DNA of 64,000 nt from positions 4,278,001-4,342,000 of the forward strand of contig CM035353.1 of assembly GCA_020137815.1 (NCBI GenBank). Reading direction: 5' to 3'. The notes beneath the pieces were generated by a model. The model had not been told where the DNA came from. It did no database searches and saw only the letters and a program-made list of their open reading frames with translations. The first letter of the stretch is position 1. Each line of letters opens with the position of its first letter. Below, piece by piece: positions 12,901 to 53,514 of this stretch. Source of the DNA: Hormiphora californensis. Its lineage: Eukaryota > Animalia > Ctenophora. Both the position numbers and the translations under genes were made by a program.

Positions 12901-14183
12901 TGTACTCGCGGTTACAATACAGGGTGTCCCACTGTCTTTGTACTCGCGGGTACAATACAGGGTGTCCCACTGTCTTTGTACTTGCGGGTACAATACAGGG
13001 TGTCCCACTGTCTTTGTACTTGCGGGTACAATACAGGGTGTCCCACTGTCTTTGTACTCGCGGGTACAATACAGGGTGTCCCGCTGTCTTTGTACTCGCG
13101 GGGATAATACAGGGTGTCCTGCTGTCTTTGTACTCGCGGGTACAATACAGGGTGTCCCACTGTCTTTGTACTCGCGGGTACAATATGCAGGGTGTCCCAC
13201 TGTCTTTGTACTCGCGGGTACAATATAGGGTGTTCCACTGTCTTTGTACTCGCGGGTACAATACAGGGTGTCCCGCTGTCTTTGTACTCGCGGGTACAAT
13301 ACAGGGTGTCCCACTGTCTTTGTACTCGCGGGTACAATACAGAGTGTCCCGCTGTCTTTGTACTCGCGGGTACAATATAGGGTGTTCCACTGTCTTTGTA
13401 CTCGCGGGTACAATACAGGGTGTCCCACTGTCTTTGTACTCGCGGTTACAATACAGGGTGTCCCACTGTCTTTGTACTCGCGGGTACAATACAGGGTGTC
13501 CCACTGTCTTTGTACTCGCGGGTACAATTATATGCAGGGTGTCCCACTGTCTTTGTACTCGCGGGTACAATATAGGGTGTTCCACTGTCTTTGTACTCGC
13601 GGGTACAATACAGGGTGTCCCGCTGTCTTTGTACTCGCGGGTACAATACAGGGTGTCCCACTGTCTTTGTACTCGCGGGTACAATACAGGGTGTCCCACT
13701 GTCTTTGTACTCGTGGGTACAATACTACATGGGGTATAATTGTTGTAAGTGGGGCATCGTATTACAGTATCTTAGTGTGGTAATAGGATATATTGAACAG
13801 CGGGTATAGGCGGCACATCAATCGTCATAGTATAATGTATCAGAGTATTTTGAGGCTCAGAGTACGTTGATAAATTGATGTCCCAAATCCCAGTGTATGT
13901 GAGCTACACAAGTAATACAACATACCAGGAACCGACCGAATCAGGAAATACTGGTCCCTGATTGGCTGATAACCAGTCACGTGACCTAAATAACGAGTTC
14001 TGATTGGTTGTTTACTTGATTCGGTCGGTTCCTGCAACATACCCTGATGTAGTTGGCGTTAATGTAACCATCCAGCGAGTTCCCTAACTTCACTCTTGTG
14101 TGGAGATCTGGAGGGGGTTGGGTGATAGAGAGAGATATATAGAGACAGAGAGAGAGAGATAGAGAGATAGAGATAGAGAGAGA

Positions 14184-22300: not shown

Positions 22301-23100
22301 CGCTACTTTTCTCTCCCTCTCCCCCCCCCCTTTTCTCTTTTCTCCCCCCTCTCTTTTTTCCCCCCTTTTTTCTCTCTTCTTCCTCTCTTTCTCTCTCCCG
22401 TCTCCATTTTTCTGTCCTTCTCTCCCTCTCTGCTTTTCCCGCGCCCCTCCTTTCCTCCCTTTTCTCCCCTTTCCCTCTCCCTTTCTGCCTCCTCTCTCGG
22501 CCTCGCTCCCGTTTCTCCTCTTCCCCTCCTCTTCTCCCCCCTTTTCCCTCCCCCTCTTCCCCTCCTCCCTCTATCCGTCTCCCCCTAAGGGGAAAAAGGG
22601 GTTCTTTTTCCTTCTCCCCCTTTTCCCCCTTTCTTTTCTTTTCCTTTATCCTCCCCTTCCCTGGGAAATTTTAATTTTTTTTGAAAAATTCTTTTTTTCT
22701 TTTTCCACTTTTGTTTTCCTTTGTTAAATTTTGAACTGAAAAAAAATCTTGGTCCATTATCTTTAAAAAAAAATAAAAACCCCCTATTTTGGTTACAAAC
22801 TTTTGGTTTAAAAAAATCCCCCCCCCTTACGGGGTTACTATTTGGGTTTTAAAAAAAAAAAAAAAAAAAATTAAAATCAACCCCTATCCCCCCTTCCTCC
22901 CTTTCCGGGACGGGAAAAGGGGTAAACCCCTTATCTGTAGTCCCTCTCCCAATTTTTTATTTCTATTTAAACCCCCAACCTTGAAGAAAAAAATCCCGGG
23001 CTTGCCGGGGGAAAAATTTTAAAAAAAAAAAAAAAACCGGACCTAAAAAATCAAGGGGAAAACCCCCCACTTGAAACGTGGTACCTTGGGGGGTCCTACG
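15740..23100. other. Low-quality, homopolymer-inflated sequence (probably unpolished single long-read segment)
   Basis: Long runs of A/C/G/T throughout; 22995-23100 is a corrupted reverse complement of the clean 24278-24358. Confidence 0.85.
19480..20990. mobile_element. Degraded foldback element of about 1.5 kb centred near 20235
   Basis: CTGTGATTTGGGTTATCTGTGATTGGTATCG (about 20118) pairs with CGATACCGATCACAGATAACCCAAATCACAG (about 20325); outer arms also pair loosely. Confidence 0.7.
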
Positions 23101-24358
23101 AATGGCACTACGGTGCGGGATAAAAAAATCCATTCCCTAAAATCTTTTTTTTTACTTTTATTTGATTTGGGTCAAAATTGGCTATATTAAACGTGGTCCC
23201 GAAAAATCCATAATGACTTAGCACACGAAATATGTCACCCCCACCTATTTTTGCACGTAGAATCGATTGCCGTTGAAGTCGAATCTCTAAAATGACTGTA
23301 AAATGGTCAAAAGTTGATTTTTTACCATTTTTTGGAGGTTTTTGGCCCCTAAACCATTGAAAACGTTGAGATAGGAATTTGAAACTTGTGCCAATCGTTA
23401 AAATGGTCATTTTTCTACCAAGAACCAAGTTTTCGTGTATATCCGATTTATGGTTAGATTTGGGCAAATTGTTGAAATCTGCCAACTAGGAGAACCGTAA
23501 CTTGATTTTCTTGTTTTTTGGATTTTGGCATTTTTGACAAACTTCTGATTGAAATGGTCAATCGGGACCATGCTTAAGTTGTTTATGGGACAATTTTCGA
23601 CTAAAATCCAAGATTTCATACCAATCCAATAACAGATCGTTGATTTATAGAAAATTTAAGTAGGCAAAACGGTCAAAACAACAACTTTTCTTGCTTATTT
23701 TGACCGTTTTGCCTACTTAAATTTTCTATAAATCAACGATCTGTTATTGGATTGGTATGAAATCTTGGATTTTAGTCGAAAATTGTCCCATAAACAACTT
23801 AAGCATGGTCCCGATTGACCATTTCAATCAGAAGTTTGTCAAAAATGCCAAAATCCAAAAAACAAGAAAATCAAGTTACGGTTCTCCTAGTTGGCAGATT
23901 TCAACAATTTGCCCAAATCTAACCATAAATCGGATATACACGAAAACTTGGTTCTTGGTAGAAAAATGACCATTTTAACGATTGGCACAAGTTTCAAATT
24001 CCTATCTCAACGTTTTCAATGGTTTAGGGGCCAAAAACCTCCAAAAAATGGTAAAAAATCAACTTTTGACCATTTTACAGTCATTTTAGAGATTCGACTT
24101 CAACGGCAATCGATTCTACGTGCAAAAATAGGTGGGGGTGACATATTTCGTGTGCTAAGTCATTATGGATTTTTCGGGACCACGTTTAATATAGCCAATT
24201 TTGACCCAAATCAAATAAAAGTAAAAAAAAAGATTTTAGGGAATGGATTTTTTTATCCCGCACCGTAGTGCCATTCTGTAGACCCTCAGCTACCACGTAC
24301 AAGTGGTGGTTTCCCGTTGCATGCTAGGTCGTGTTAAAATTTCACCAGGCACGCCGTG
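22995..24358. mobile_element. Foldback (palindromic) DNA element of about 1.36 kb
   Basis: 23101-23679 is the exact reverse complement of 23698-24276, with an 18-nt spacer; pairing continues outward in noisy form; right end ...GGCACGCCGTG followed by TA. Confidence 0.85.
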
Positions 24359-31143: not shown

Positions 31144-34137
31144 TTACAACTCAGCCATGGGTTCCCCATCACCCACTCCAAATGCACCAACGAAGAGATG
31201 TGTTTTCAGGCGAGCTTTAAAGGTATCAACGTTGGGGATCGACCTTAACTCGAGGGGTAGCTCATTCCAAATAGCAGGCAGAAATACTGATAGTCTCCTA
31301 CGTCTCAATTTAGAATTGGCGTTGATACTGGTCATCTTGGGGTGTTTTAATCTGTAAGGATCAATAACACTAGTCATCCTTGTTGTCCTGGAGACTCCCC
31401 AGCTTTTATCAAGAGGAACCATTTCCTGGAGGTAACCTGGTGCCGTTCCATAGACTATCTTATAAGCGATTAGACAGGCTTTGAAGTCCAGTCTGTAGGA
31501 GATGGGTAAAATATGACACTGCCTGAAGTATTCCGAGTAATCCTCTTGATGCCCATGGATGTTGAATATAAAGCGTACACAGGAGTTTAGTGTTTTCTGG
31601 AGCCCACCAAGAACTCGGGCCGGAAGTCCACAGTACAGAATATTACTGTAATCAATCCTCGATATAATCAATTGTTTGACCAGCATTATCTTCGTTTGAA
31701 TATCAAAACATCTGTGTAACTGCCAAAGATTCCGTAGTATCAGCCCACACTGTTTCCTCACATTGTTAACCTGTCGTTCAAGATTAAGATTGTGGTCCAA
31801 GAGTATTCCCAAGGTTTTCCCATCTGCTCCACTACATTCACTGGGGAAGATTTCCGTTCCTCCAAAGTTGATAACTGGATCGAAAGAGATTTTACTCAAA
31901 GAACTGCGCTTTCCAAGCAGGATGAATTCCGTTTTGGCCTCATTACACTTCAACCACTGCCCCACCATCCACCGTTTCACCTTCGCCAGACACTCCTCAA
32001 TATCCACCTTCGTCCTAGACCAGCCAGTAGAATCCGTAGGAACCAAACTCACATAGAGCTGGGAGTCGTCTGCATATAACTTTATCCGGAGTCCATATGG
32101 TTCCACAATATCTTGCACAGCTTCAATGTAAAGTAGAAACAAAATAGGACCAAGAAGAGACCCCTGGGGCACTCCACAGAGTAAGGCCAGGGTATCCGAG
32201 AGACAATCACCAACCGAGACTCTAAAAGATCTGGAACTCAGGTAGCTCTTAAACCATTGAAGAGGATCACCATCCACTCCAAACCGTTTCTGCAACACCT
32301 CCAACAACTTTCCATGATCCACTGTGTCAAACGCAGCGCTCATGTCCAAACAGATCAGAGCAACAACATTTCCTTTATCCATCTCACCTAATACATCATC
32401 AAACATGCTGGCTAACAGCGTTTCGCAACTGTGACCAGCACGATAACCGGATTGATGCTTGCCCAGAAGTGAATTGCTTTCAAGGTACTCATTCAGCTGC
32501 GTGAGCACCACCTTTTCTAGGAGCTTAGAAAGGAATGGGATATTAGAGACAGGACGATAGTTACTGAGAGCTTCCCTATCTCCGTACAGATTCTTGATGG
32601 TAGGAAACACGATAGCTTTCTGGAGAGATTCCGCAACTGTAGACTGATGTAGAGATTGGTTTACCATCGATGTTAATACCGGAGCAAGATCCCTAATGCA
32701 CTCCTTTACTACCCAAGTGGGCAACGGATCAAGGTCACAATGTTTGCTTGACATAGACTTCACCACCTTAACAAGTTCCTCCTCCGATATCTCTTTGAAT
32801 TCCTTCCATGTTGAATGACAGGCTTTTCCGGGTTCCTCAAAGTCGCCAGCTTGCTTCTGCTCCTCATTGACTTGGGTTCGAATTTTTTCCACTTTGGAAC
32901 TAAAGAACTGGGAGAAATCATCTGCCAAGTTCTTGGTGTTTGTTGTTTCAGGAAGAATTGTTTCAGCTTTTCCAAGGAGTTTCTGGAGCTTACTTTGCAA
33001 TTTCTTTGGGTCACCTTTGGCAGCAACCAAGTCCTCTTTAATGAAAAGTGACCTCTTTTCCCTATCCATCTTTCCATACAGTTTCTTCAGGTCATTAAAT
33101 CTCCGTTTCGCATCCATAGTTCCAAGTTTCCGCCAACACCGTTCTGCATTCCTCCTCTCTCGAAGTAATCCTCTAAGTTCCTCATCCCTCCATGGCTTAA
33201 ACTTTTTACCAGTCCTCACCCGTTTCCTCGGTACTCGCTTCTCCACTATACCTTCCAGCCAACGATAGAAATTCACCACGCCCTCCTCTGGATCCCTACC
33301 TCCTTCAAAATCTGCCTTCCGCAAGTCCTCTTTAAATCCTTCCAAATCCACTGACTTGTAATCCATGTATTCTCGATGCACTGATTTCTTCAGACAGGAG
33401 TTCGACAGGTCAGGTCTCACTTGAATCCCAAACTGTACTAGGAAGTGATCTGATGTAGTACCATTAGGAAATATGGATATGTCACCTAGAGAAGTTTCTC
33501 TTGTAGTTATCACCAAGTCCAAGGTTCCTCCCAGCTGGTGAGTAGGCAACATTGGTACTCTTTGTTGAAGATCAAATGAATCCAGCAGCTCCAAAAGTTT
33601 CCTTGCATAGAAGTTATTATCATCTTGCACCTGGAAGTTTAGGTCACCAGCGATGATCGGAGTACCTTGCTTCATAACAAGCTCGGAAAGGTAGTCACCA
33701 AACTCCGACAGGAAAGTTGCTTCTGTAAGTCTCGACCTCGGTGTGTACGGAGGACGATAGACATTACAGATTCTCTTCGGTTGATCTCTGTCACTGATCA
33801 GAACCTCTTGTACTTGAAAAGACTTATACTTGGTCTTCACTGGACACTGCCGAAGAACTATGCCATCTCGAAAAAGTATTCCGATTCCTCCACCTCCTCT
33901 GTCTCCTCTGGGGCATGAGAAAATGTCCCATCCATTATCTCTGATTTCTTGAAGTTTTCCAGTGTCCGTTGATTTCAAAAATGTCTCCTGTATAAGACAA
34001 ATATCACAATCCTCCTCTTCCAGATGCGAAATAACACCTCCAGTTTTGTTAATAAGAGAGCGGACATTTAGTGTCCCAATCTTCCAAGTCTTTTCCTGTG
34101 TAGCTCCTCCTTGGTCCTCGTCCAGTACAGGTTTTTT
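31144..34137 (-). CDS. LINE A ORF2: APE endonuclease plus reverse transcriptase (frame extends upstream to the slippery site)
   Basis: IGTLNV, LIQET, GDLNF, SDHF, NYRPVSN, LDMSAAFDTVDH, GVPQGSLLGP, YADD; uninterrupted. Confidence 0.95.
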   Translation of the reverse strand, partial: KKPVLDEDQGGATQEKTWKIGTLNVRSLINKTGGVISHLEEEDCDICLIQETFLKSTDTGKLQEIRDNGWDIFSCPRGDRGGGGIGILFRDGIVLRQCPVKTKYKSFQVQEVLISDRDQPKRICNVYRPPYTPRSRLTEATFLSEFGDYLSELVMKQGTPIIAGDLNFQVQDDNNFYARKLLELLDSFDLQQRVPMLPTHQLGGTLDLVITTRETSLGDISIFPNGTTSDHFLVQFGIQVRPDLSNSCLKKSVHREYMDYKSVDLEGFKEDLRKADFEGGRDPEEGVVNFYRWLEGIVEKRVPRKRVRTGKKFKPWRDEELRGLLRERRNAERCWRKLGTMDAKRRFNDLKKLYGKMDREKRSLFIKEDLVAAKGDPKKLQSKLQKLLGKAETILPETTNTKNLADDFSQFFSSKVEKIRTQVNEEQKQAGDFEEPGKACHSTWKEFKEISEEELVKVVKSMSSKHCDLDPLPTWVVKECIRDLAPVLTSMVNQSLHQSTVAESLQKAIVFPTIKNLYGDREALSNYRPVSNIPFLSKLLEKVVLTQLNEYLESNSLLGKHQSGYRAGHSCETLLASMFDDVLGEMDKGNVVALICLDMSAAFDTVDHGKLLEVLQKRFGVDGDPLQWFKSYLSSRSFRVSVGDCLSDTLALLCGVPQGSLLGPILFLLYIEAVQDIVEPYGLRIKLYADDSQLYVSLVPTDSTGWSRTKVDIEECLAKVKRWMVGQWLKCNEAKTEFILLGKRSSLSKISFDPVINFGGTEIFPSECSGADGKTLGILLDHNLNLERQVNNVRKQCGLILRNLWQLHRCFDIQTKIMLVKQLIISRIDYSNILYCGLPARVLGGLQKTLNSCVRFIFNIHGHQEDYSEYFRQCHILPISYRLDFKACLIAYKIVYGTAPGYLQEMVPLDKSWGVSRTTRMTSVIDPYRLKHPKMTSINANSKLRRRRLSVFLPAIWNELPLELRSIPNVDTFKARLKTHLFVGAFGVGDGEPMAEL

Positions 34138-35309
34138 TCCTCTTTGCTTACACCTGCAGTCCTCTCCATAAGCCGTGCTCGTTCATTGATGTAGGAAGGG
34201 CACCACATACTTGAAGCCGTATGGGTCTTCGAATACTTCTTGTCCTCTCTTGATCCTCCAACTTCACAGTTCACACATTTCATCCTACCAGTCTCGTTGT
34301 TCTTCTTTGCTCTACAGTCTTTCGTCTGATGCGATCCAGCACAGAAGCAGCATATTGGAGTATCCTTTTGGGGGCAGTAAATCGATCCTGCTATATGCCC
34401 AAATCCTTGACAGTGAAAACACTGTATCACATGATACCTGTTCTTGACAAAGTGTTGCCGAAGACCCAAGTTGATCTTATCCCCGTTAGTAGACAAAAGC
34501 CTCCGGATCTCTGGAGCCATCTGGATCACTGCATACCTGTCTCTTTCGCTCACAAACACCACCTTCAACTTCTTGTCCTCATGATAAAGTTTTCTGATAT
34601 CCACATTCTTGTCCAAAATCGCTGCCAGGATAGTCTCCTTTTTCAGTAGGTCTGGGTCCAAATCATTTATAGTTACCTTTGGTTCAAGCTTCTTGGCCTC
34701 CTCTGAGAAAAATGACATGGAACAGTCCTGTGCAAGTGGAGTCAAAACTTTCTCTGCTTCCTTCATCTGGTCTTCATCAGGGAAATACAGCCGGGTATGG
34801 TCACTGTTCACTCTGGATCTCACCACCGGTATCGTCTTCAACGCAGTTTCCACTTTGGGTTTGACCTCATCAGTCCACTTCTTCGCACAGAATCCTGGCC
34901 CTCCTTCCTCATTGATGCCAGTTTTAATATTCACATAGTGTTTCATCGTAGGTGTAACCGGTTCCTCTGGATCACCACCACCAATATCACTTCTACTATT
35001 CTCCATAGGTTTGACCAAAGCAGAGATAGTGGAAACCAGATCCTTGTGCAGCTTTGCAAACGACTCTTTCAGATCAGTCTGGTCTCCAGGAACAGAAAAC
35101 GGTGCCGACGCCGGAAGCATGTTGTAACAGGCTTTGAGAAGATGCCACAACTGAGGTTTATGGACAGACGACGGACAAACAGTGTCACCCCTCCCAAGGC
35201 ACACTAACAAATCACTACCCTTATAATCATTACTAAATACTTCTCCTGCTAACACGTCTTCAAAATCACTCTTAGTGATACATATGTCATAATTACTCGT
35301 AACGGTCAT
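34068..35309 (-). CDS. LINE A ORF1 (gag-like, zinc knuckles)
   Basis: 413 aa with CFHCQGFGH...C, CCFCAGSH...C and CVNC...H...C. Confidence 0.92.
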   Translation of the reverse strand: MTVTSNYDICITKSDFEDVLAGEVFSNDYKGSDLLVCLGRGDTVCPSSVHKPQLWHLLKACYNMLPASAPFSVPGDQTDLKESFAKLHKDLVSTISALVKPMENSRSDIGGGDPEEPVTPTMKHYVNIKTGINEEGGPGFCAKKWTDEVKPKVETALKTIPVVRSRVNSDHTRLYFPDEDQMKEAEKVLTPLAQDCSMSFFSEEAKKLEPKVTINDLDPDLLKKETILAAILDKNVDIRKLYHEDKKLKVVFVSERDRYAVIQMAPEIRRLLSTNGDKINLGLRQHFVKNRYHVIQCFHCQGFGHIAGSIYCPQKDTPICCFCAGSHQTKDCRAKKNNETGRMKCVNCEVGGSREDKKYSKTHTASSMWCPSYINERARLMERTAGVSKEEKNLYWTRTKEELHRKRLGRLGH

Positions 35310-35450: not shown

Positions 35451-35491
35451 CTCAAATTAATTTGTTTAAAGTAGTGTTGAAAAGTTTGAAA
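35451..35491 (-). other. Spliced-leader exon sequence at the 5' terminus of LINE A
   Basis: TTTCAAACTTTTCAACACTACTTTAAACAAATTAATTTGAG, identical over 40 nt to 39360-39399; SL identity recalled from the ctenophore literature. Confidence 0.85.
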
Positions 35492-35744: not shown

Positions 35745-37600
35745 ATGGCAAAGAGATCACTTAGATCTGGTACTGGAGAGTCAGTAAAAATCATCACTAG
35801 ATCTGCTAGAAAGTTTGTAATTCCTCCCCTCCTGAAAACAGAACAAATTATGGTGGAAGATATCATCAAACCAGAGATCGACCCACCCTGCACAGACTCC
35901 AAGAGTTCGGAGATTACCGGTATAGCAGATAACACCATCTATTACACATGTGGTGGTTGTGGGGAATCGGGTGTTCACCATTTGGGTTTAGAGTACCGAC
36001 TAGTTAGAACAGCCACGTTAGTGGAGGTTGGTTCTCAAACTGGTGATGCCTCTGAGATTCAAGTAAAGGCTTCTGGAATGATAGGATCAGAGGTTGGAAT
36101 CTTAGACGATGCAATGGAAAGGAATAACCAAAACAATCCTGTCCTAGTTTCTGTTTCTGCTTCTTCGCCAATTATTGCGTCTTCTGCATCTAATAATGGT
36201 AAGTTTTGTGGGGAATCTTTCCAATAACATTCCGTTGCCTTTTACTATGTACTTTGTCAGTTAATTTTTGTCTATTTTCACGCAAACCTATCCAAACCTA
36301 TACTTTCAACTTCCACCTCCAAAGTCGTGCACAGAATTGTTTTGTGCGTTTATCAAATTAACGTGTAACACGTGCAAAAAATTCCAAATTTCAATTTTGG
36401 GGGAACAGATGCAAAAAGTGGATTTTTTATTTTATAAAGTTCTAACCCTCCTTTTTATTTTCAGAAGATACTTCCGAAGATGAGGCTTGCTCTGACTCAG
36501 ATGAAGAGGGATCTTTGGATGAATCTAGTGGTGAGGAAGAGGTTAGCAGCTCTGAAGATGACATGATGCTATGTCTCACAGATGAGACACTCAGTGATTC
36601 CAGTGAAGAAGAAGAAAGTGTTCCACAGAATTCTTCCCAGAAACCCAACTCTACAAAACTCCCTGTTCCCCAGTCACAAATCCTACCTCCGCAATCTATT
36701 AATAACCAACCGACCACTTCCAATCCTGATTGTCGTCGGAAATCTGCCAGGAATAAAAGAGCTAAAGCTGGTCCAGATCAAGAGTCCCTACTGTATTTGT
36801 CTCCTGGGTCCTCGAGTGAAAGAGAGGTCGGTCCTGCTCAAAATAAAACACTCGGTAAAAACATTCGAAATTCGTTAGCAGAGGATTCGACTGAGAAAAA
36901 TGTGCAGAAATCTGGTTACCAGTGTAAAATTGTTCGGTGCTCGGTCGTAAAATCTTCGGAGAAGGACTTGTTTGAGCACGTTAGGATTAAACACTCTGAC
37001 AGAAAACACCGGTGTAATGTCTGTCCAATAGCTTTTAAGCAATCTGGTCACCTTAATCGGCACAAACGCATCCACAGTGGAGATAAACCTCACCAATGTG
37101 ACGAGTGTGGAATGAAGTTTGTTACGAGAAGCACTCTTGAGCGACATCAACTTTCTACTCATAATGACAAAAAAATTGTTTCTTGCCAAAGAAAAAATTG
37201 TGGCGTGAGAGTATTCAAGAATGAGTTGTTCGACCACATCATAACGGCACACCCGAAAGAGAAGTTTCAATGTGATATTTGTCCTATGAGTTTCAAGTCA
37301 TCTAAGAATTTAATGGAGCATGCACGAAACCATAATGGTAATAAACCATACATATGTGAGATCTGTGGGAAGAATTTTTCTTATTTTAGTTCTTATAAAA
37401 GACATGTTGTTGTGCATAATGGAATGCTTCCATTCAAATGTGAGGTCTGTGGTAAACTGTTTTCTCGAGCAGATGATATTAGGAAACATATGAGAATGCA
37501 CACTGGCGAGAAACCGTTTCAATGTTCTTTCTGTGAGAAATGCTTCACATTTCCTTCTCCCAGAAGCGTTCATGAGCTTTCTTGTTCTGCGAAACAATAA
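35745..37600 (+). CDS. C2H2 zinc-finger protein (exons 35745-36198, 36465-37600)
   Basis: Phase-1 intron joins in frame; acidic region then about 8 C2H2 fingers with HTGEKPF/HSGDKPH linkers; pyrimidine tract plus AG just before the ATG (candidate trans-splice acceptor). Confidence 0.9.
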
Positions 37601-38903: not shown

Positions 38904-39359
38904 ATGTCTCACTTGGCAGATGAAACTTCCATATGAATAAACTAAATCTGCAGTGTGTGACTTTGCCAGTTAATATATATGTTCTAACCATCCCTTACAA
39001 GTCATGGGCGGTGGGCGAGAGGTTCAAGCATTAAAGTAAATTAATTAAATTAGTGTTTTTAATAGATAATCATAGCTTCCGTTCTTTTGTCTGGACAGAT
39101 GACTGACGTAGAGAAGTTGAAGTTTCAAACTTATCTTTTCTCGTCCCACTCACACTTCAATTCCTCTTCTTCGCTGAACGACTTGAAGTCAGATGGTGCT
39201 CAATCTCTGAGCTTCATGTCCCTGGATCAGGGATCGTGACACTGCTTTGCAGCTTGTTCAACATTCATACGATACTACCAGCACTCAGCACACACAACAC
39301 CTCTGCAGCTGCAGTTGTCGAGGTGTTGTGATCAGAGGAAAGGTTTTTTCTGTCAAGAC

Positions 39360-39399
39360 TTCAAACTTTTCAACACTACTTTAAACAAATTAATTTGAG
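39360..39399 (+). other. Spliced-leader exon sequence at the 5' terminus of LINE B
   Basis: TTCAAACTTTTCAACACTACTTTAAACAAATTAATTTGAG directly after the TSD. Confidence 0.85.
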
Positions 39400-39557
39400 T
39401 GTTCCGCTTGTAATCTCTTTGGCGATCCGTGTCAGTGCTAATTTTCTGGTTTTTGATATCTCTAAGTAGCGTAAATCTCTGTGGGCTTTTTTGAACGTTC
39501 TTGGAGTATTGGGAGTCAGTTTTAGTGCTGTCCAGGAGTGTGAACCGGTGTTTTAGG

Positions 39558-40847
39558 ATGAACGATTTTGATGAAGTTACGAATAGAGAGGAGTTTGATA
39601 GTACTATGGCTAGAACTGTTTTTTCTGATAGGTCGGGGGGTCAGGGTTGTGTTGTCCTGAGGCGTCTGCTCGACGCGGGAAAGGCTCCGGAGGGGGTCAC
39701 CAAAGACCAGCTCTGGATACTCCTGATGAAGACCCATTCTCTGCTACCTTCTGGAACAAGAACACGTTTCGACAGTTGCGGAAGCTCAGTAGCTGACATC
39801 TCTATCGGACATGCAGACTTACTGAAGGAAAGTTTTGAGAGTCTTAAATCTGATTTATTGAGTACGATCGAAAGGAAAGTGGAGGACAAGGTGACAGCGA
39901 TTTTACAGAAAACTGTTTCTGATAATGAAGAGGAGAAAGTGGCTGTACCCCCAATGAGACGTTATGTTGATATCAAGCTAGATACAACTGTCACTGAGGA
40001 TGATGAATCGGTACCGGTGTGTCCTAAAGTGCAATGGGCTGATCATGTAAGGCCTAAAGTGGAGGAGGCACTGAAAGGAGTTCCAGTATTGAATACAGTA
40101 GTCAACAAGGGGAGTGTTAGACTATCGTTCCAGACAGAGGACCAGCTCAAGGAGGCTAAGGATGTTCTATCCCCGGTGTTTGCGCAGGATGTCCAGATGT
40201 TTACGGAAAAGAAAGCCTATCTCGACCCAAGAATTGCGATAAATGATTTGGGAGAGGATTTACTAAACAAGGAGGCACTGTTTGCAGAATTGGCAAGTGT
40301 GAAGAATGAGAGAATCAAGACTCTTGTTGACCAAGGAGAGACATTGAAGGTCATCCATATCAATTCTAGAGGAAAATTTGCGGTGCTTCAGGTGTCACCA
40401 GAGATCCGGAGGGTTATTGCATCGAACAAAGATAAGATATTCCTGAGACTTCGGCAACATTCTGTGCGAGATCGGTTCCATGTAATTCAGTGCTTTCACT
40501 GTCAGGAATTTGGACATGTGGCAGGCTCGATCAGGTGCTCAAAGAAGGATGATTCAGCAGTTTGTGCATTCTGTTCTGGAAGGCATGAGACAAGGGAGTG
40601 TAACAACAGGAAGAGGAATGATGTGGGAAGGATGGTGTGTGTTAACTGTAACAACAGTAGCAGTAGAGAGGACAAAAGATATGCCAAGACCCATATGGCT
40701 TCAAGTGCATTGTGTCCGTACTACATCAATGAACGTGGACGACTGATGGATAGGACAAGTGGTGTGACCAAAGAGGAAAAAAACGGCTACAGGACGAGGG
40801 CAATGGAGGATCTGCGAACAAAACGACTTGGAGGATCGGGACGTTAA
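39558..40847 (+). CDS. LINE B ORF1 (gag-like, zinc knuckles)
   Basis: ATG at 39558 in the same context as LINE A; CFHCQEFGH...C, CAFCSGRH...C, CVNC...H...C. Confidence 0.92.
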   Translation: MNDFDEVTNREEFDSTMARTVFSDRSGGQGCVVLRRLLDAGKAPEGVTKDQLWILLMKTHSLLPSGTRTRFDSCGSSVADISIGHADLLKESFESLKSDLLSTIERKVEDKVTAILQKTVSDNEEEKVAVPPMRRYVDIKLDTTVTEDDESVPVCPKVQWADHVRPKVEEALKGVPVLNTVVNKGSVRLSFQTEDQLKEAKDVLSPVFAQDVQMFTEKKAYLDPRIAINDLGEDLLNKEALFAELASVKNERIKTLVDQGETLKVIHINSRGKFAVLQVSPEIRRVIASNKDKIFLRLRQHSVRDRFHVIQCFHCQEFGHVAGSIRCSKKDDSAVCAFCSGRHETRECNNRKRNDVGRMVCVNCNNSSSREDKRYAKTHMASSALCPYYINERGRLMDRTSGVTKEEKNGYRTRAMEDLRTKRLGGSGR

Positions 40848-43774
40848 ATGTGCATTCGATTATGAACAAAACAGGAGGAGTTATTGCACATCTGGAGGAG
40901 AAGGAATGTGACGTGTGTCTTATCCAAGAAACATATCTGAAGGTCACTGACACGGCTAAAATACAGGAAATAAGAGATAATGGCTGGAACATCTTTTCGA
41001 GTCCGAGGAATGAGCGGTCTGGAGGTGGAATTGGAGTCTTATACCGGGATGGAGTGATGGTAAAATTGGCACCAGTGAAGTACAAGTTTAAAACTTTTCA
41101 AGTCCAGGAGGTTCTAATCGGAGGAGAAGAGGATTTACTGAGACTCTGTAACATTTACAGACCCCCATATACTGGAAAGGCAAGATACACAGAGGCAAAC
41201 TTCCTTGATGAAATCAATGATTACTTCTCTGACCTACTAATGAAAACTGGCAACCCCTTAATTATGGGTGACTTCAATTTTCAAGTTCAGGATGAGGAAA
41301 ATTTCTATGCACGGAAGCTGCTAGAAATGTTGGATTCTTTCGATTTCATGCAGAATGTTCCAGCAGAACCTACTCATGTTAGAGGAGGAACCCTGGATCT
41401 GGTCATTTGTCAACGGGATTTGGCTGGTAAGATGAGGAGGCTTAATATCTTTCCTGAAGGAACTTTGTCGGATCATTTCTTGGTAACAGTGGATGTGGAA
41501 CTTAATACCCCTGGAAAGGATTTCATTACTCGGAAAAGGATTAACATGTATCGTGACTTCAAGTCTGTGGATGTGGAGGCTTTCAGGAGGGAGTTGCAAG
41601 GAGAGTGTCTTGAGGTTCCAGATGGTGCATCAGTGGAGGATACGCTTGGAATTTATGACAAAGCACTGAATAGTGTTGTGGAACGCCTGGTCCAGATGAA
41701 GCGGCGAAAACCAATGAAGAACCGGAGACCTTGGAGGGATAGACAAGATGTGAGAGAAGCTCTCAGAAAGAGGAGGCAAGCGGAGAGAGCTTGGGAGAAA
41801 AACAAGACCGGTTTAAACAAGGCACAGTACAAAGACCTCCAGAGGAAATTTAACAAGATTGACAAAGAGGCAAGGATGGAGTTTGTGAAGAGGAATCTAG
41901 AGGAGGTTAAGGATGACCCAGCGGCTCTCCAGAAGAGACTTGGGCATGTACTGGGGAAGACGGAGACATCGTTACCAAGTGGACCTTCAGATAAGAAATT
42001 GGCGGATGAATTTGCATCATTCTTTAGTGGAAAGATTGAAAAGATCAGGTCGGTTATCCTTGAGGAACAGGAGAGGAATCCGGATGAGGAACCCGTGTCA
42101 TCGGCGGTACATGGAGGATGTACGCTTAATCAGTTTGAGGAAATCTCGGTTGGTGGGCTGATCCAGATGGTGAAGGAACTTTCCAGTAAGACGTGTGATT
42201 TAGACCCTATCCCTACTTGGCTGGTGAAGGACTGTCTCGAGGAGTTAGCGCCAATCCTAACGGAAATTGTAAACAAATCACTGAAGCGGGCATGTGTTCC
42301 TGATGCTCTGCAAGGAGCACTGGTTATGCCTACTATCAAGAACCCGAACGGTGATAAGGACCTGCTGTCGAACTACAGACCGGTATCGAACATAGCGTTT
42401 GTTTCAAAGCTACTGGAAAAGGTTGTCCTCACTCAGTTGAATGGATACCTATGGAAAAATGATCTTCTTAACCCCAACCAATCGGGGTATAGAGTTGGGC
42501 ACAGCTGTGAGACTCTTCTTGCGGGTATGTTTGATGACCTTCTAAAGGATTTGGACTCTGGAAAAGTTGCTGCACTCATGCTTCTTGACATGAGCGCGGC
42601 ATTCGACACGGTGGACCATCAGGCGCTAATTGGAGTATTAGAGAGGAGATTTGGTGTTACTGGATTGGCGTTGGACTGGTTTAGGAGTTACCTAGGATCG
42701 AGGAATTTTCAAGTGAACATACGAGGAGAACTTTCAGCGGCTATTGCCCTTATCTGTGGGGTTCCACAAGGATCTCTGTTGGGACCGGTTCTTTTTCTAC
42801 TTTACATTGAGGAATTACAGGATATTGCCCGGCCATACGGTTTGAGCATCAAGCTCTATGCTGATGACTCTCAACTGTATGTTAGCCTGATACCGACTGA
42901 TGCGGATGGATGGAATGTAACGAAGCAGGCAGTGGAGGAGTGCCTTGGTAACATGAAGAAGTGGATGGTCTCTAACTGGCTAAAGTGTAATGAAGACAAG
43001 ACAGAGTTTGTCCTCCTTGGGAAATCTAGCTCTTTGGAAAAGCTCAATTTTGATCCGGTAATAAACTTTGGGGGTACGTCATTAGTACCAATGAAATGCC
43101 AAGGACAGACTGGAAAAACACTAGGAGTACTACTTGATGATCACCTTACGTTGGAGCGTCAGGTAAATAATGTGAAACGACAATGTGGACTGATGCTGAA
43201 GAACCTCTGGCAAGTTAACAAGTGCCTAGACAAGAGTACTAAGATCCTTCTTGTAAAGCAGTTGGTGATATCAAAGATTGACTATTGTAATATCTTGTAC
43301 TATGGACTGCCACAACGAATCCTTCAAAATCTACAGAAGACTCTGAACTCCTGTATACGGTTTGTCTTTAATCTGAATGGTCATCAAGATGATTACATGG
43401 AGTATTTCAGAGAGGCTCACATTCTTCCGATACAGCAGAGATTAACTTTTAAGGCATGCCTGCTGGCTTACAAGATTGTTCGAGGAACTGCCCCTAGGTA
43501 CTTGTTGGATCTGGTACCTAGGGATGAGGAATATGGATCACTGAGGATGACGAGGGCTACAACTGTTCCAGACTTTTTCCGGCTAAAATATCCCAAACTG
43601 TCAAGTATCAATGCAAACTCGAAGTTGCGTCGAAGAAGACTTTCAGTGTTTCTTCCTGACGTATGGAATGATCTCCCCCTTGAGCTCAGATCAGTTCATC
43701 CTGTTGATCTGTTTAAGACAAGACTAAAGACAAGGTTATTTCAGGAGGCATTCGGATCTGCTTCAGAGTTGTAA
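40778..43774 (+). CDS. LINE B ORF2: APE endonuclease plus reverse transcriptase (frame extends upstream to the slippery site)
   Basis: IGTLNV, LIQET, GDFNF, SDHF, LDMSAAFDTVDH, GVPQGSLLGP, YADD; uninterrupted. Confidence 0.95.
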   Translation, partial: KKRLQDEGNGGSANKTTWRIGTLNVHSIMNKTGGVIAHLEEKECDVCLIQETYLKVTDTAKIQEIRDNGWNIFSSPRNERSGGGIGVLYRDGVMVKLAPVKYKFKTFQVQEVLIGGEEDLLRLCNIYRPPYTGKARYTEANFLDEINDYFSDLLMKTGNPLIMGDFNFQVQDEENFYARKLLEMLDSFDFMQNVPAEPTHVRGGTLDLVICQRDLAGKMRRLNIFPEGTLSDHFLVTVDVELNTPGKDFITRKRINMYRDFKSVDVEAFRRELQGECLEVPDGASVEDTLGIYDKALNSVVERLVQMKRRKPMKNRRPWRDRQDVREALRKRRQAERAWEKNKTGLNKAQYKDLQRKFNKIDKEARMEFVKRNLEEVKDDPAALQKRLGHVLGKTETSLPSGPSDKKLADEFASFFSGKIEKIRSVILEEQERNPDEEPVSSAVHGGCTLNQFEEISVGGLIQMVKELSSKTCDLDPIPTWLVKDCLEELAPILTEIVNKSLKRACVPDALQGALVMPTIKNPNGDKDLLSNYRPVSNIAFVSKLLEKVVLTQLNGYLWKNDLLNPNQSGYRVGHSCETLLAGMFDDLLKDLDSGKVAALMLLDMSAAFDTVDHQALIGVLERRFGVTGLALDWFRSYLGSRNFQVNIRGELSAAIALICGVPQGSLLGPVLFLLYIEELQDIARPYGLSIKLYADDSQLYVSLIPTDADGWNVTKQAVEECLGNMKKWMVSNWLKCNEDKTEFVLLGKSSSLEKLNFDPVINFGGTSLVPMKCQGQTGKTLGVLLDDHLTLERQVNNVKRQCGLMLKNLWQVNKCLDKSTKILLVKQLVISKIDYCNILYYGLPQRILQNLQKTLNSCIRFVFNLNGHQDDYMEYFREAHILPIQQRLTFKACLLAYKIVRGTAPRYLLDLVPRDEEYGSLRMTRATTVPDFFRLKYPKLSSINANSKLRRRRLSVFLPDVWNDLPLELRSVHPVDLFKTRLKTRLFQEAFGSASEL

Positions 43775-44796
43775 TCGGAGGTGTCCTATCCTTCCCCTTT
43801 CCCGTGTCGAGCAGACAATTCTAGCATAGCAATTCCTTACTATTTCCCTTCCTAGGGCTATTATAGCAGGGGGGCTGCTGATGCAGTTGAGCTGACTTTT
43901 GTTTGTAGCATGAGGGCTGCTGGCTCTGTTTCTTTATCCCGATTTATAGTCTGTTATTTAATTGCAGCTAACAAGTTGTTTTCCAGAAGTTTATGTGTCC
44001 CGTTTTTCCTTAGGCTTTTTTCAATTTTTTTGGAGTATATAATCAGTAGATGTGTCTATTTTGTTCTAAGTGAGTCAGGATATTAACAATCTTGGTGTAC
44101 CGCTCTGAATCTGGGCAGTGTTGGACTCATGTCAATGATCCAGCCCTGTCTGGACTGAGCGGTATACTAAAAACCCTTATTATTATTATTAAGACTTTAC
44201 GTAACGCGCAGCCATCTCTCAATAGATGTCATAGCGCGCGCACACCATATATAGAGTCGGATTAGCATATACAGGGTGGTTCAGAAACATGGAGCCACTT
44301 TGAGATAACTAATGTGTCAATACAGTTCGCTCTCCGATGTACAGTGTAATTAGAAACGTATTTTCACAGTCTCTTGACTAGAAAAAGCTTCCCCTGAGAA
44401 TTGAGATCGACAGAGAGTCACTCTTTCCTAAAAATTATCAGCATGTCAACTGACACTGTCAGTTGACAGGCTGATAATGATACAAAGCACCAAGATTTAA
44501 AATATAAATCAAGATCTAATAATAACTAATTAATCAGATATATTTCATCTCTGTCAAGCTGAAGATCCTAGATCTCAAGTGAATGACAGAATTATTACTC
44601 CGAGCATGAACTCCATGATCGCTTTCATGCCCCATCTATCGGGTTCCCGGTATCAACAATATATTTCAGTGCATGGGCTAGTTGTGCCGTGGAGTCGACT
44701 ACCATGTGGTAAGTCCTCCTGTATATCTCTCTTGACGCTATCCACGGTTTCCTCGTTTATCTCCCCTCTAGCCAGTTGGAATCCGAGTTTCAAAGG

Positions 44797-45374: not shown

Positions 45375-45950
45375 GGCCTAAAAACCCAAATTTTATTTAT
45401 TTATTTTGAACACTCCATCGTAACAAGCATGCTATTGGAGTCCCAAAAAACATAGGTACACGCCACATGGACCCCAGGTGAGCCCAGGGGGAGCCCCTCA
45501 AGTTGGGGCCCATTTAGGGTCCACTTGTAAACGCGCTTGTACTCCTTGAAACGCTAACAATATGATCCTCTCTCAAATATAAAATTTAGGATAGAAATGA
45601 TCCTTGTGTTTTAGTAGATTTCATAATTTTTCTCATCAATTATTATTTAAGCCTATCAAAACTAGGAGAAAAGTTACCAGAATACAGAGACAAGAAAGAT
45701 TATGTATTCACCTGAAACACAAAGATAATTTTACCCAAAACTTCAAATTTCGGAGAGGATCATATTGTTAGCATTTCAAGGAGTACAAGCGCGTTTACAA
45801 GGGGACCCCAACTGGGCCCCAACTTGAGGGGCTCCCCCTGGGTTCACCTTGGGTCCATGGGGCGTGTACCTATGTTTTTTGGGACTCCAATAGCATGCTT
45901 GTTACGATGTAGTGTTCAAAATAATTAAATAAAATTTGGGTTTTTAGGCC
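45375..45950. mobile_element. Palindromic MITE of about 575 bp
   Basis: GGCCTAAAAACCCAAATTTTATTTA ... TAAATAAAATTTGGGTTTTTAGGCC, arms about 200 bp. Confidence 0.88.
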
Positions 45951-48211: not shown

Positions 48212-51140
48212 CTACGTCAAAGAATTCCCTCATTCTAGTTCTTTTTGGTAGCTTGTACCAATTTTCAGTCGCCCTTACTACTTCCCACTTAACATCCCTC
48301 CATCTTCTTACTGGAAGGTGTTCTAGATAGTATGAAACGATATTCCACCTAATCTCCTTAGTGCTGTCTTGTTGAGTCCTGTAGAGATCCTTTTCTTCGA
48401 AAGAATCTTTGATCTTGGGCGATCCTGTTTCAATTTTTTTCTCCTAGTTTCTTCCTCAAATCTATTGTACTATTGTCTAAGCCTTCCATACTATCACTCA
48501 TAAACTCCAGGACCACGGTGTTCACGATCCTTTCCTTGTTTGATGGAGCTATTCCTCTCATTGATGATGTTCAATTGTCCAGTGATTGACGGGTCGTCCT
48601 TCTCTTTCTAGAGCTTCTGAGTCACTTGATGAGCCGATTATGTCTCCCTATTTCCACATTTGTCCTCAGTTTCCGGACTAGTACCGTAGTTGAATCTAAT
48701 ACTAGGCACCTCAGAAATTCCTGTTTCGCGAGTTCCTTCCATGAGTCCGTAACTTTCCTTTGGGACATCTGAAACGGGAGAGTCCAAAAGTTCTCGTAGA
48801 TTTGGGCCCTGGTTTTTTCCATTGCCCATTCATATTCCAGGTTCCTCTCCAACAGTCGCAGGCTCACGTCTTTACAGATTTCGATGGTTTTTTTATGACG
48901 AGTAGTCATAAATAGTAATGACTGGCCACCAGTGGTAACGAGTAGTGATATTATTATTACTCTCACATTGTTTCATGCTGTCTCTCTATTCTCTATTGCA
49001 TGACCACAACTGAAGCCACAAATTGTTCTAATTGTTATCTATTGTTCTCGACAGCTACAATCTGTCTACAAAGCTTTCTGTATCTATGCTTACAATTAAC
49101 TAAATAATACTTTTCAGACAGTACAAGAGATCCTTTTCTTCGAAAGGATCTTTGATCTTGGGCGATCCTGTTTCAATTTTTTCTTCTAGTTTCTTCCTCA
49201 AATCTATTGTACTATTGTCTAAGTCTTCCATACTATCACTCATAAACTCCAGGACCGTCATGATGGCTGATTTTCCACTCAAATCATCCCGCGTTATCCC
49301 CTTTTTGCATCCTCCATCAATACTAGCCTCCTTTATCATTTTTCTTTCCTCTAGGACTGCCCGTATCACTATCGTGATTGCATAATTCGACACTCCCCCT
49401 TTGGATGCCTGTAATACCGGTGTCCCCTCAAATAATGTTTTGATCGCTTGTACGGTTACCCTGAATACTTCTTCTTGTGTGAACCTGCATAATATAATCG
49501 TTCAAACTTTCATCAATTACAACGTAAAGTTTTTATTGAGGACGCTTATTGTATTGGGAAATGAGCCATTCGAATTAAATTCTTCTGCGGTGGCAATGCC
49601 ACAGCCCCTAAAAGCCGCCGTGTTTTCATGAATAATATAATGTATAATCCTATTTTTATTAATCTAGATTTTAATATCTTACCACTACGTCAAAGAATTC
49701 CCTCATTCTAGTTCTTTTTGGTAGCTTGTACCAATTTTCAGTCGCCCTTACTACTTCCCACTTAACATCCCTCCATCTTCTTACTGGAAGGTGTTCTAGA
49801 TAGTATGAAACGATATTCCACCTAATCTCCTTAGTGCTGTCTTGTTGAGTCCTGTAGAGATCCTTTTCTTCGAAAGGATCTTTGATCTTGGGCGATCCTG
49901 TTTCAATTTTTTCTCCTAGTTTCTTCCTCAAATCTATTGTACTATTGTCTAAGCCTTCCATACTATCACTCATAAACTCCAGGACCACGGTGTTCACGAT
50001 CCTTTCCTTGTTTGATGGAGCTATTCCTCTCATTGATGATGTTCAATTGTCCAGTGATTGACGGGTCGTCCTTCTCTTTCTAGAGCTTCTGAGTCTCTTG
50101 ATGAGCCGATTCTGTCTCCCTATTTCCACATTTGTCCTCAGTTTCCGGACTAGTACCGTAGTTGAATCTAATACTAGGCACCTCAGAAATTCCTGTTTCG
50201 CGAGTTCCTTCCATGAGTCCGTAACTTTCCTTTGGGACATCTGAAACGGGAGAATCCAAAAGTTCTCGTAGATTTGGGCCCTGGTTTTTTCCATTGCCCA
50301 TTCATATTCCAGGTTTCTCTCCAACAGTCGCAGGCTCACGTCTTTACAGATTTCGATGGTTTTTTTATGACGAGTAGTCATAAATAGTAATGACTGGCCA
50401 CCAGTGGTAACAAGTAGTGATATTATTATTACTCTCACATTGTTTCATGCTGTCTCTCTATTCTCTATTGCATGACCACAACTGAAGCCACAAATTGTTC
50501 TAATTGTTATCTATTGTTCTCGACAGCTACAATCTGTCTACAAAGCTTTCTGTATCTATGCTTACAATTAACTAAATAATACTTTTCAGACAGTACAAGA
50601 GATCCTTTTCTTCGAAAGGATCTTTGATCTTGGGCGATCCTGTTTCAATTTTTTCTCCTAGTTTCTTCCTCAAATCTATTGTACTATTGTCTAAGCCTTC
50701 CATACTATCACTCATAAACTCCAGGACCGTCATGATGGCTGATTTTCCACTCAAATCATCCCGCGTTATCCCCTTTTTGCATCCTCCATCAATACTAGCC
50801 TCCTTTATCATTTTTCTTTCCTCTAGGACTGCCTGTATCACTATCGTGATTGCATAATTCGACACTCCCCCTTTGGATGCCTGTAATACCGGTGTCCCCT
50901 CAAATAATGTTACCCGGAATACTTCTTCTTGTGTGAACCTGCATAATATAATCGTTCAAACTTTCATCAATTACAACGTAAAGTTTTTATTGATGACGCT
51001 TATTGTATTGGGAAATGAGCCATTCGAATTAAATTCTTCTGCGGTGGCAATGCCACAGCCCCTAAAAGCCGCCGTGTTTTCATGAATAATATAATGTATA
51101 ATCCTATTTTTATTAATCTAGATTTTAATATCTTACCACT
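48212..51140 (-). repeat. Near-identical tandem duplication (period about 1473 bp) carrying TENT-like fragments
   Basis: 48212-49684 matches 49685-51140; ORFs with ASKGGVSNYA and IKDPFEEKDL are duplicated. Confidence 0.92.
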
Positions 51141-51819: not shown

Positions 51820-53514
51820 TAATCCATGGAATATGGGTATCGAACCCTGCATAGTGGAAGGGCAAAGGTTTCTTTTCACCAAAGTGTAGCCTAAGGGGTC
51901 CTTAATCACCAAAAAAAAGTTTACATCCCAGAAGTGGGGGATAAGGGTCGTAATTGGCCATAATTGGGTACCTGTATTTTCAGGCTGAGGCCAAAACCAT
52001 AAGTCCCCTTAAAATAGGAGTAGAGACAAATCTAAGACTAAAGTGATCAGCGTCCTCGCATTACTGGGGGTAGGAGTCTCTATCTCATCTGGTTAATTAG
52101 ATAATTGGATAATTAGATTTGCGCATAACCGTTTTTAGGCTATATATGGCTATAGCCACTTAGGAATGGTTTAGAGACTTTTCACTGGTGCCATTTTGTA
52201 GGCAATGGCCAAGTTATGGAGGGTCGACGTCGGACTTTTAAGCTCTATCTCCAACCGTTTAGCCGTTAATTGGCTTTTAAGGTGCTGAAAATGACCAAAA
52301 ATCGGGCTTTTTACCGTTTTTGCTCATTTTCAGAGTAAAAAGCCCGATTTTGAGCACCTTTAAAGCCAAATAACGGCTAAACGGTTGGAAATAGAGCTTA
52401 AAAGTCCGACGTCGACCCCCCATAACTTGGCCATTGCCTACAAAATGGCACCAGTGAAAAGTCTCTAAACCATTCCTAAGTGGCTATAGCCATATAGCCT
52501 AAAAACGGTTATGCGCAAACCGAATTATCCAATTATCTAATTAACCAGATGAGATAGAGACTTAAAGTAAGAGTGGCCCGCCGTGTTTTCTCACAAAACT
52601 TAGTGGATGAACGGGGAGTACCACCAGGACCATTGGTACGGTATCGAAAATTTCCAATTCTGTCTCGTTCATTAGTTATGACGTAATATGTTCATTATTT
52701 AAACTTTTATAAAATTGCTCTTCAGAAAAATCCGTGCATTGTGGATTGAAATGGATGCTTGCATCGTGTTCAGCGTCAAAAAATAGCCGGGGTACCAAAT
52801 TTTGGTGTCTCTACCTTGTCTGTGACGCGAGATATCGACAAATATCAAAAACGACCAAAGTGAGAGAAAGAGAGATTGTTATCTTTGGGTGCTAGTTGTT
52901 TGTGCGCGCCACCCACTTGTAACAAACTCTCTTTCTCTCACTTTGGTCGTTTTTGATATTTGTCGATATCTCGCGTCACAGACAAGGTAGAGACACCAAA
53001 ATTTGGTACCCCGGCTATTTTTTGACGCTGAACACGATGCAAGCATCCATTTCAATCCACAATGCACGGATTTTTCTGAAGAGCAATTTTATAAAAGTTT
53101 AAATAATGAACATATTACGTCATAACTAATGAACGAGACAGAATTGGAAATTTTCGATACCGTACCAATGGTCCTGGTGGTACTCCCCGTTCATCCACTA
53201 AGTTTTGTGACAAAACACGGCGCGCCACTCTTACTTTAATTCCGGCACCTACCCCCACTAATGCGAGGACGCTGATCACTTTAGTGCCCTCAGATTTGTC
53301 TCTACTCCTATTTTAAGGGTACTCATGATTTTGACCTCAGGCTGAAAATACAGGTACCCAATTATAGCCAATTACGACCCTTATCCCCCACTTCTGGGAT
53401 GTAAACTTTTTTTTGGTGATAAAGGACCCCTTAGACTACACTTTGGTGAAGAGAAACCTTTGCCCTTCCACTATGCAGGGTTCGTCAAAAATTTGACCCA
53501 TATTCCATGGATTA
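51820..53514. mobile_element. Nested palindromic composite: outer inverted arms (51820-52074 and 53248-53514) enclosing hairpins 52075-52562 and 52562-53239
   Basis: Each pair verified by reverse-complement matching; the second hairpin is bounded by TTAA at both ends. Confidence 0.9.

Follow-up and report, generated by a model that had tools for sequence, protein, structure and literature searches.

A slippery heptamer conserved at the ORF1-ORF2 junction of ctenophore LINEs suggests synthesis of the endonuclease and reverse transcriptase as a -1 frameshift fusion

We analyzed a 64,000-nucleotide stretch of the Hormiphora californensis genome (GenBank assembly GCA_020137815.1, contig CM035353.1; the window below), which contains two intact long interspersed nuclear elements (LINEs) lying head to head, LINE B on the forward strand and LINE A on the reverse. 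In both, the second open reading frame (ORF2) overlaps the first (ORF1) in the -1 frame, and an A_AAA_AAC heptamer lies within ORF1 shortly before its end. Given that the heptamer is in phase with ORF1, that ORF2 of LINE B has no AUG ahead of an asparagine in the first motif of its endonuclease, and that the heptamer is conserved among related loci, we consider it probable that -1 ribosomal frameshifting at this site yields an ORF1-ORF2 fusion, which would be 1405 residues long in LINE B.

The ORF1 codons at the LINE B junction read GAG (40773), GAA (40776), AAA (40779) and AAC (40782), confirming the original prediction that the heptamer at 40778-40784 stands in the X_XXY_YYZ phase of a slippery site; no other strict heptamer lies in phase in this ORF1, and ORF1 of A likewise has just one. 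Also as predicted, the -1 frame opens after a TAG (40751-40753) and is free of stops from 40754 to 43774, running through the endonuclease and reverse transcriptase domains. The overlap with ORF1, earlier put at about 65 nt, is real, measuring 63 nt when counted from the end of the heptamer through the ORF1 stop codon (40845-40847) and 94 nt over its whole length. Counting -1 codons from the heptamer, the motif-I Asn is codon 24 and the first AUG, at 40862, is codon 29, and the earlier placing of that AUG beyond motif I was therefore correct; LINE A has no ORF2-frame AUG for 154 codons past the heptamer. The functional weight that had been given to this Asn is borne out by its alignment to N14 of the human L1 endonuclease, as N14A in L1 and N17A in Zorro3 reduce retrotransposition to 1% and <5%, respectively (PMC1965478; statements on the papers cited here refer to excerpts of them). 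Both ORF2s have Pfam domains above cut-off for an APE endonuclease (Exo_endo_phos) followed by a reverse transcriptase (RVT_1), the arrangement of APE-type LINEs.

A metagenome scan with the ORF1 alignment gave 10 further loci (L001-L010), making 12 with A and B; L001, which is 96% identical to B, was dropped from the counts, leaving 11 loci with ORF1 identities of 29-87%. Additional loci were sought in viral contigs and genome contigs, and none were found there. The nearest -1-frame stop upstream of the heptamer lies 1, 2, 2, 2, 2, 8, 12, 14, 14, 15 and 24 codons away in the 11 loci, so that the -1 frame is closed just one or two codons before the heptamer in five of them, and from the heptamer to the APE motif all 11 are without a -1-frame stop; as a control, 54 of 238 windows of 17 codons in the -1 frame of ORF1 are stop-free. 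There is no AUG ahead of the motif-I Asn in 8/11 loci. The heptamer is fixed 51-63 nt before the ORF1 stop, and the two bases preceding it vary. In nine of the 12 loci the ORF1 stop, TAA, is followed by an ATG in the ORF1 frame, which in B opens an ORF of five codons; stop-start coupling of the SART1 UAAUG type was considered and rejected, since the ATG after the ORF1 stop is never in the ORF2 frame in any of the 12. As to individual copies, the ORF2 frame of L005 (703-1056) ends after 117 codons, reflecting a broken copy or an assembly error, and ORF2 of L002 (1431-4733) is about 100 residues longer than in the other loci.

Conservation of the heptamer across family copies was one of the tests set for the original prediction, and at the nucleotide level it is kept throughout: A_AAA_AAC or A_AAA_AAU stands at the homologous site with ORF2 in -1 in 12/12 loci (10/10 metagenome loci plus A and B), even though synonymous divergence is saturated, with a mean four-fold-site identity of 0.29 among the 11 loci. 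The codon before the Lys is GAA in four loci, GCA in three, ACA in two, TCA in one and CGA in one, five amino acids always with a final A; the Lys is AAA in 11/11, and the Asn is AAC in eight and AAT in three. The fixed bases at the junction are thus just those that form the heptamer. From each element's own codon frequencies the joint chance of this pattern is 1e-10, or about 1e-8 if the pairs L002/L004 and L005/L006 are each counted once. Other near-invariant Lys columns use AAG (10/11 and 7/10), other Lys-Asn dipeptides use AAA in 7/53 cases and form the heptamer in 0/53 (1.3 expected), and over the remaining 12,426 in-frame codon positions in these loci strict heptamers occur just 10 times. 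The heptamer is conserved beyond what the protein requires and more than chance would allow. Closer to the window, contigs from three DNA runs covering 40660-40960 contain several subfamilies that differ on both sides of 40773-40785, and of the 40 differences listed, out of 56, none falls within that interval and none is an indel.

More distant relatives were compared as proteins alone. An ORF1 profile search returned 4337 proteins at E <= 0.001, of which 150 were listed and 134 had a usable C-terminus; among these 134, 106 carry x-K-N about 20 residues past the last knuckle Cys, 10 carry x-K-K, five carry D/N-F-L and 13 carry neither. The residue x can be encoded by a codon with a final A in 105 of the 106 x-K-N proteins, the exception being Met, and in 100/100 when a narrower window is used, as against 431 of 569 other KN sites (138/569 not). 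In 36 of these 100 the protein ends within three residues of KN, so that the dipeptide persists even in proteins that have lost the helix following it. The D/N-F-L proteins (P0222, P0229, P0234, P0312 and one more), in which this triplet replaces x-K-N after the last knuckle, are what one would expect had the heptamer changed to U_UUU_UUA.

If ribosomes do shift at the LINE B site, tRNA-Lys and tRNA-Asn would slide back by one base and pair anew, all three zinc knuckles having by then been synthesized. Presumably only a fraction of ribosomes would slip, those that did not finishing the 429-residue ORF1 protein 63 nt later, while in those that did the last 20 ORF1 residues would be replaced by a linker of about 17 residues followed by the APE and reverse transcriptase domains. 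The predicted fusion comprises 409 ORF1 and 996 ORF2 residues and would keep all the RNA-binding modules, losing only the last ORF1 helix (405-423). With both products made, ORF1 protein would be in excess and the enzyme would be tethered to an RNA-binding module. A Pfam scan found no protease domain in ORF2, and the fusion would therefore stay whole unless cut by the host.

Several observations weigh against frameshifting. The original prediction proposed folding 40785-40860 as a pseudoknot, and the outcome was negative: positions +1 to +76 past the heptamer of B fold no better than shuffles (z +0.79), A behaves likewise, and an alignment fold of the region 3' of the heptamer in 11 sequences gives 0 pairs. 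Folds of individual loci over 100 nt reach z < -2 in only 2/11, with stems that differ among loci and no shared helix, and the junction pairs with the 3' tail no better than under the null, 29/75 and 10/78 control windows scoring as well. In addition, a single third base is found in all rows at 11 of 250 alignment columns, two of them with four different residues; an AUG stands at -1 codon 9 in three of the 11 loci (L005-L007); and x in the distant proteins is mostly Ser, Ala or Pro, so that a protein-level preference is possible there. Concerning the third bases, A is kept in just the two heptamer columns, and eight others (a Met column aside) keep G or T. No stem-loop or pseudoknot 5-9 nt downstream, as in canonical eukaryotic -1 frameshifting, was found in these folds, and without a 3' stimulator the site is not a complete canonical -1 frameshift signal. 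A two-tier G-quadruplex pattern, also considered, occurs in only 4/11 loci. The pairing between junction and tail showed some complementarity to the 3' arm of the terminal hairpin, strong only in L002, and cognate pairs were not the best. Within the purine-rich overlap a block of 7 nt (40793-40799, +9 to +15 past the heptamer) is fixed in 8/8 closer loci, and its Thr is always ACG, as against 40/217 elsewhere; the block may be constrained by both reading frames or may serve as a binding site. Shifting might be promoted by a bound protein or by this purine-rich block 9-15 nt downstream, or it might proceed unassisted and inefficiently.

The lack of a stimulator also speaks for two other routes to ORF2, reinitiation and transcriptional slippage. 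Ribosomes might instead terminate and reinitiate near the ORF1 stop as in L1, starting independently of AUG on a near-cognate codon, or else on the AUG of the three loci just mentioned, to give a free ORF2 protein, with the A-run aiding pausing or recycling. In L1 the ORF2 AUG can indeed be replaced by any sense codon (PMC1965478; PMC5009743), and an Ile codon (ATT/ATC) is present at -1 codon 20-21 in 9/11 loci, close to the ORF1 stop and ahead of the Asn; the Ile is, however, accounted for by the APE motif, the AUG directly past the ORF1 stop is in the frame of ORF1 and not of ORF2, and reinitiation leaves unexplained both the seven fixed positions so far upstream of the stop and the stop-free -1 frame from there onward. 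We regard it as unlikely. Transcriptional slippage, in which RNA polymerase II would add one A within the run of some transcripts and so fuse ORF1 to ORF2, would not depend on an RNA structure, and potyviral polymerases can slip on a run of six A. Yet the run is only six A in 7/11 loci and seven in 4/11, shows no tendency to lengthen and stays in one codon phase; the D/N-F-L triplet of the five distant proteins fits a U_UUU_UUA-type heptamer (at the protein level only); and slippage would leave fused genomic copies, whereas 0/12 loci are fused. Nor is there an insertion at the site among the differences listed for contigs of six runs, in which rare variants are lost and RNA barely covers the site: an X15 RNA contig ends at 40773, and one X17 contig, from a relative and of depth 3.4, reads through with the run unedited. 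Taken together, these points make polymerase slippage quite improbable.

A separate ORF2 mRNA, produced by leader trans-splicing or by cis-splicing at an acceptor in the overlap, has in its favor that hosts of this type trans-splice at least 56% of their mRNAs (PMC8527503), that the RNA of the element evidently receives the leader, that an AG lies 13-15 nt past the heptamer in 11/11 loci, and that two Mnemiopsis gene models (P0288, P0329) bridge the junction. But the leader has no AUG and 8/11 loci have none before the Asn, so the endonuclease would lack motif I (in LINE A the first AUG is codon 155); the AG is preceded by a purine in most loci, and the tract around it is rich in purines; the two gene models from Mnemiopsis are predictions that omit the motif-I stretch; and the heptamer would again be unexplained. 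We give this route almost no credence. None of these three explanations accounts for the exact, phase-locked conservation of seven bases. A protein search for natural in-frame ORF1-ORF2 fusions returned three gene models from Pleurobrachia, all carrying host domains as well, but not one clean fusion, which is weak evidence. The named relatives of the LINE proteins are gene models from Pleurobrachia bachei and Mnemiopsis leidyi, and 64 of 83 close ORF2 records are annotated with a start after motif I. Public gene models of Pleurobrachia style and from Mnemiopsis (P0027, P0166-P0168, P0288, P0329, P0330) attach pieces of ORF1 to host domains, span the junction or begin ORF2 past motif I, and are likely annotation artefacts.

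The 5' ends of A and B are identical over 40 nt to the last 40 nt of the H. californensis spliced leader (PMC8527503), and X15 RNA contigs diverge from the window at 39401-39405 into unrelated sequence. The leader heads seven of the eight closer loci that reach upstream of ORF1 (A, B, L001, L002, L003, L004 in part, and L007), whereas the eighth, L006, lacks it and starts just 109 nt before its AUG; L010 has a different leader-like head and L009 has none. A, B, L001-L004 and L007 have differing DNA ahead of the leader. The leader-headed copies are likely retro-copies of trans-spliced RNA, and some of the 718 leader matches reported from the Hormiphora genome may be copies of this kind. Elements specific for spliced-leader genes (NeSL, CRE, SLACS) carry a restriction-like endonuclease and insert into leader-RNA gene arrays. 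Membership in that group was rejected for the present LINEs, given their APE endonuclease and the varying DNA ahead of the leader. A 10-nt motif ending in TTTTAGG stands directly before the ORF1 AUG in six loci (39548-39560, + strand, in B; also A and L001-L004), with a variant in L006 and L007, and looks like a second splice acceptor or an initiation context.

The ORF1 alignment shows three Cys/His knuckles. A predicted ORF1 structure (pLDDT 76), with its last helix at residues 405-423, matches the tandem-RRM proteins NONO and U2AF65 at E ~1e-4 with low TM-scores, and RRM domain(s) directly before the CCHC knuckles would make this a type I ORF1, an RRM assignment in which we place moderate confidence. 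A PHD-like N-terminus is present in 23 of the 150 distant ORF1 relatives listed. The reverse transcriptase and C-terminal motifs presumably resemble those of L2, and the short-repeat tail and 3' hairpin are further likenesses to LINEs of the CR1/L2 lineage. L2 subgroups 2, 8 and 10 and CR1 subgroup 3 have a type I ORF1 of the same plan, RRM plus three CCHC knuckles (PMC4120745); a term search for "frameshift" found no occurrence in the main text of that paper or of a 2026 survey of the CR1 group (PMC13343379). A broader proposal, which we offer tentatively and as possible rather than probable, is that in a broad group of animal LINEs (more than 100 ORF1 clusters, at least in ctenophores of the Pleurobrachia and Mnemiopsis type) endonuclease and reverse transcriptase are made only as a gag-pol-like -1 fusion. 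The shift would take place on A_AAA_AAC/U, or in one branch on U_UUU_UUA, without an RNA structure as stimulator but perhaps with trans-activation by ORF1 protein on the purine-rich block, and the RNA would be capped by the host spliced leader. Such a LINE life cycle would combine a trans-spliced 5' end with a recoded junction.

Table 1. Features of LINE B and LINE A, in window coordinates
Feature	Position	Strand	Remarks
LINE B 5' end, spliced-leader sequence	39360..39399	+	40 nt match to Hormiphora californensis leader
LINE B candidate 7-bp target-site duplication	39355..39361 and 44191-44197	+	short, weak; left copy overlaps leader match by 2 nt
LINE B ORF1	39558..40847	+	429 aa; predicted tandem RRM-like domains, three CCHC-type knuckles, C-terminal helix
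LINE B ORF2 frame (-1), APE and reverse transcriptase	40754..43774	+	predicted trans-frame part from 40784
LINE B slippery heptamer A_AAA_AAC, ORF1 phase	40778..40784	+	22 codons past last knuckle Cys
LINE B overlap read in both frames (ORF1 tail, ORF2 N-terminal linker)	40785..40847	+	purine-rich, no stable fold
LINE B APE motif-I Asn codon	40847..40849	+	aligned to human L1 endonuclease residue 14
LINE B first in-frame ORF2 AUG	40862..40864	+	five codons past motif-I Asn; absent in LINE A
LINE B predicted long 3'-terminal hairpin	44093..44169	+	outer stem common to relatives
LINE B (TTA)n tail	44177..44190	+	
LINE A 5' end, same spliced-leader sequence as B	35451..35490	-	
LINE A ORF1	34068..35309	-	47% identical to B
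LINE A heptamer A_AAA_AAC in ORF1 phase	34131..34137	-	
LINE A ORF2 frame (-1), APE and reverse transcriptase	31144..34182	-	60% identical to B; first AUG 155 codons past heptamer

Both elements end in (TTA)n tails, and no long direct repeat that could represent long terminal repeats (LTRs) was present at the LINE ends among the repeats listed for the window. A, B, L002, L006, L007 and L010 have a long terminal hairpin, alike in its outer stem but diverging in its inner arms, which is likely a recognition element for the reverse transcriptase. Between A and B, four-fold sites are 38-39% identical and saturated in both ORFs, and two-fold degenerate codons are identical at 68/88 in ORF1 and 124/240 in ORF2; the higher value in ORF1 perhaps reflects codon bias of a more heavily translated ORF1. 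Elsewhere in the window are a C2H2 zinc-finger exon between the two LINEs (36446-37600, + strand), long near-perfect inverted repeats of foldback or MITE-like character (23091-24285, 52559-53242 and 45375-45950, with arms of 591, 333 and 222 nt), and tandem arrays with units of 49 nt (323-1805), 38 nt (12748-13890) and about 740 nt (48384-50728).

How ORF2 of a bicistronic LINE RNA is translated is treated in reviews as an open question, and the tested cases, L1 and SART1, give a free ORF2 protein. The conserved heptamer and a precisely predicted junction make a gag-pol-like fusion testable in the present family; such a fusion, if real, would explain cis-preference and the ORF1:ORF2 stoichiometry in one step. 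A heptamer kept without a structural stimulator would be of interest to the recoding field, and, in practical terms, automatic gene calls truncate these enzymes.

The contrast originally drawn with L1 and SART1 agrees with reviews, in which ORF2 of both is translated by termination-reinitiation (PMC2881922; PMC5009743). LINE B shares with them a bicistronic LINE RNA, and ORF2 of L1 and SART1 depends on ORF1 translation (PMC2881922); it differs in its ORF overlap of 63-94 nt, in the frame of the AUG that follows the stop, which is not that of ORF2, and in its predicted product, a fusion. Recoding in non-LTR elements has also been proposed for Drosophila HeT-A, with a frameshift inside gag (PMC5009743) but no reverse transcriptase, and for Paramecium LINE groups 1-3, there as a +1 shift, reinitiation or readthrough (PMC5405496). 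With the gag-pol junctions of retroviruses and LTR elements the LINE B junction has in common an in-phase X_XXY_YYZ heptamer just past zinc knuckles and a -1 downstream ORF without a start of its own, and A_AAA_AAC is among the heptamers most prone to shifting on mammalian ribosomes (PMC5009743). It differs from them in lying in a non-LTR element and in lacking a hairpin or pseudoknot 5-9 nt downstream, and is best read as the -1 frameshift site of an APE-type LINE with a type I ORF1, working like gag-pol recoding but without its stimulatory structure.

The gag-pol-style fusion originally predicted is therefore favored by conservation, by the reading frames and by the missing AUG, the reservations being the absent 3' stimulator and a question of priority. 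A literature search turned up neither a description of a slippery heptamer conserved at LINE junctions nor work on how ctenophore LINEs are translated, although subscription papers and Repbase notes lay mostly outside it, so that an earlier proposal is possible. For APE-type LINEs as such, ours is not the first proposal of a -1 shift: the legend of a review figure states that a -1 frameshift is required for ORF2 of Dictyostelium TRE5-A and TRE3-A (PMC5911963), a shift that goes unmentioned in the excerpts of PMC5006619. Those elements resemble LINE B in having two ORFs, with APE and reverse transcriptase domains in ORF2, and the shift stated for them is of the kind proposed here; they differ in their unrelated ORF1, tRNA-gene targeting and oligo(A) tail, with no slippery site or assay stated in the excerpts of PMC5911963. 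The LINEs described here, unlike TRE5-A and TRE3-A, have a defined heptamer that is conserved over a broad animal family.

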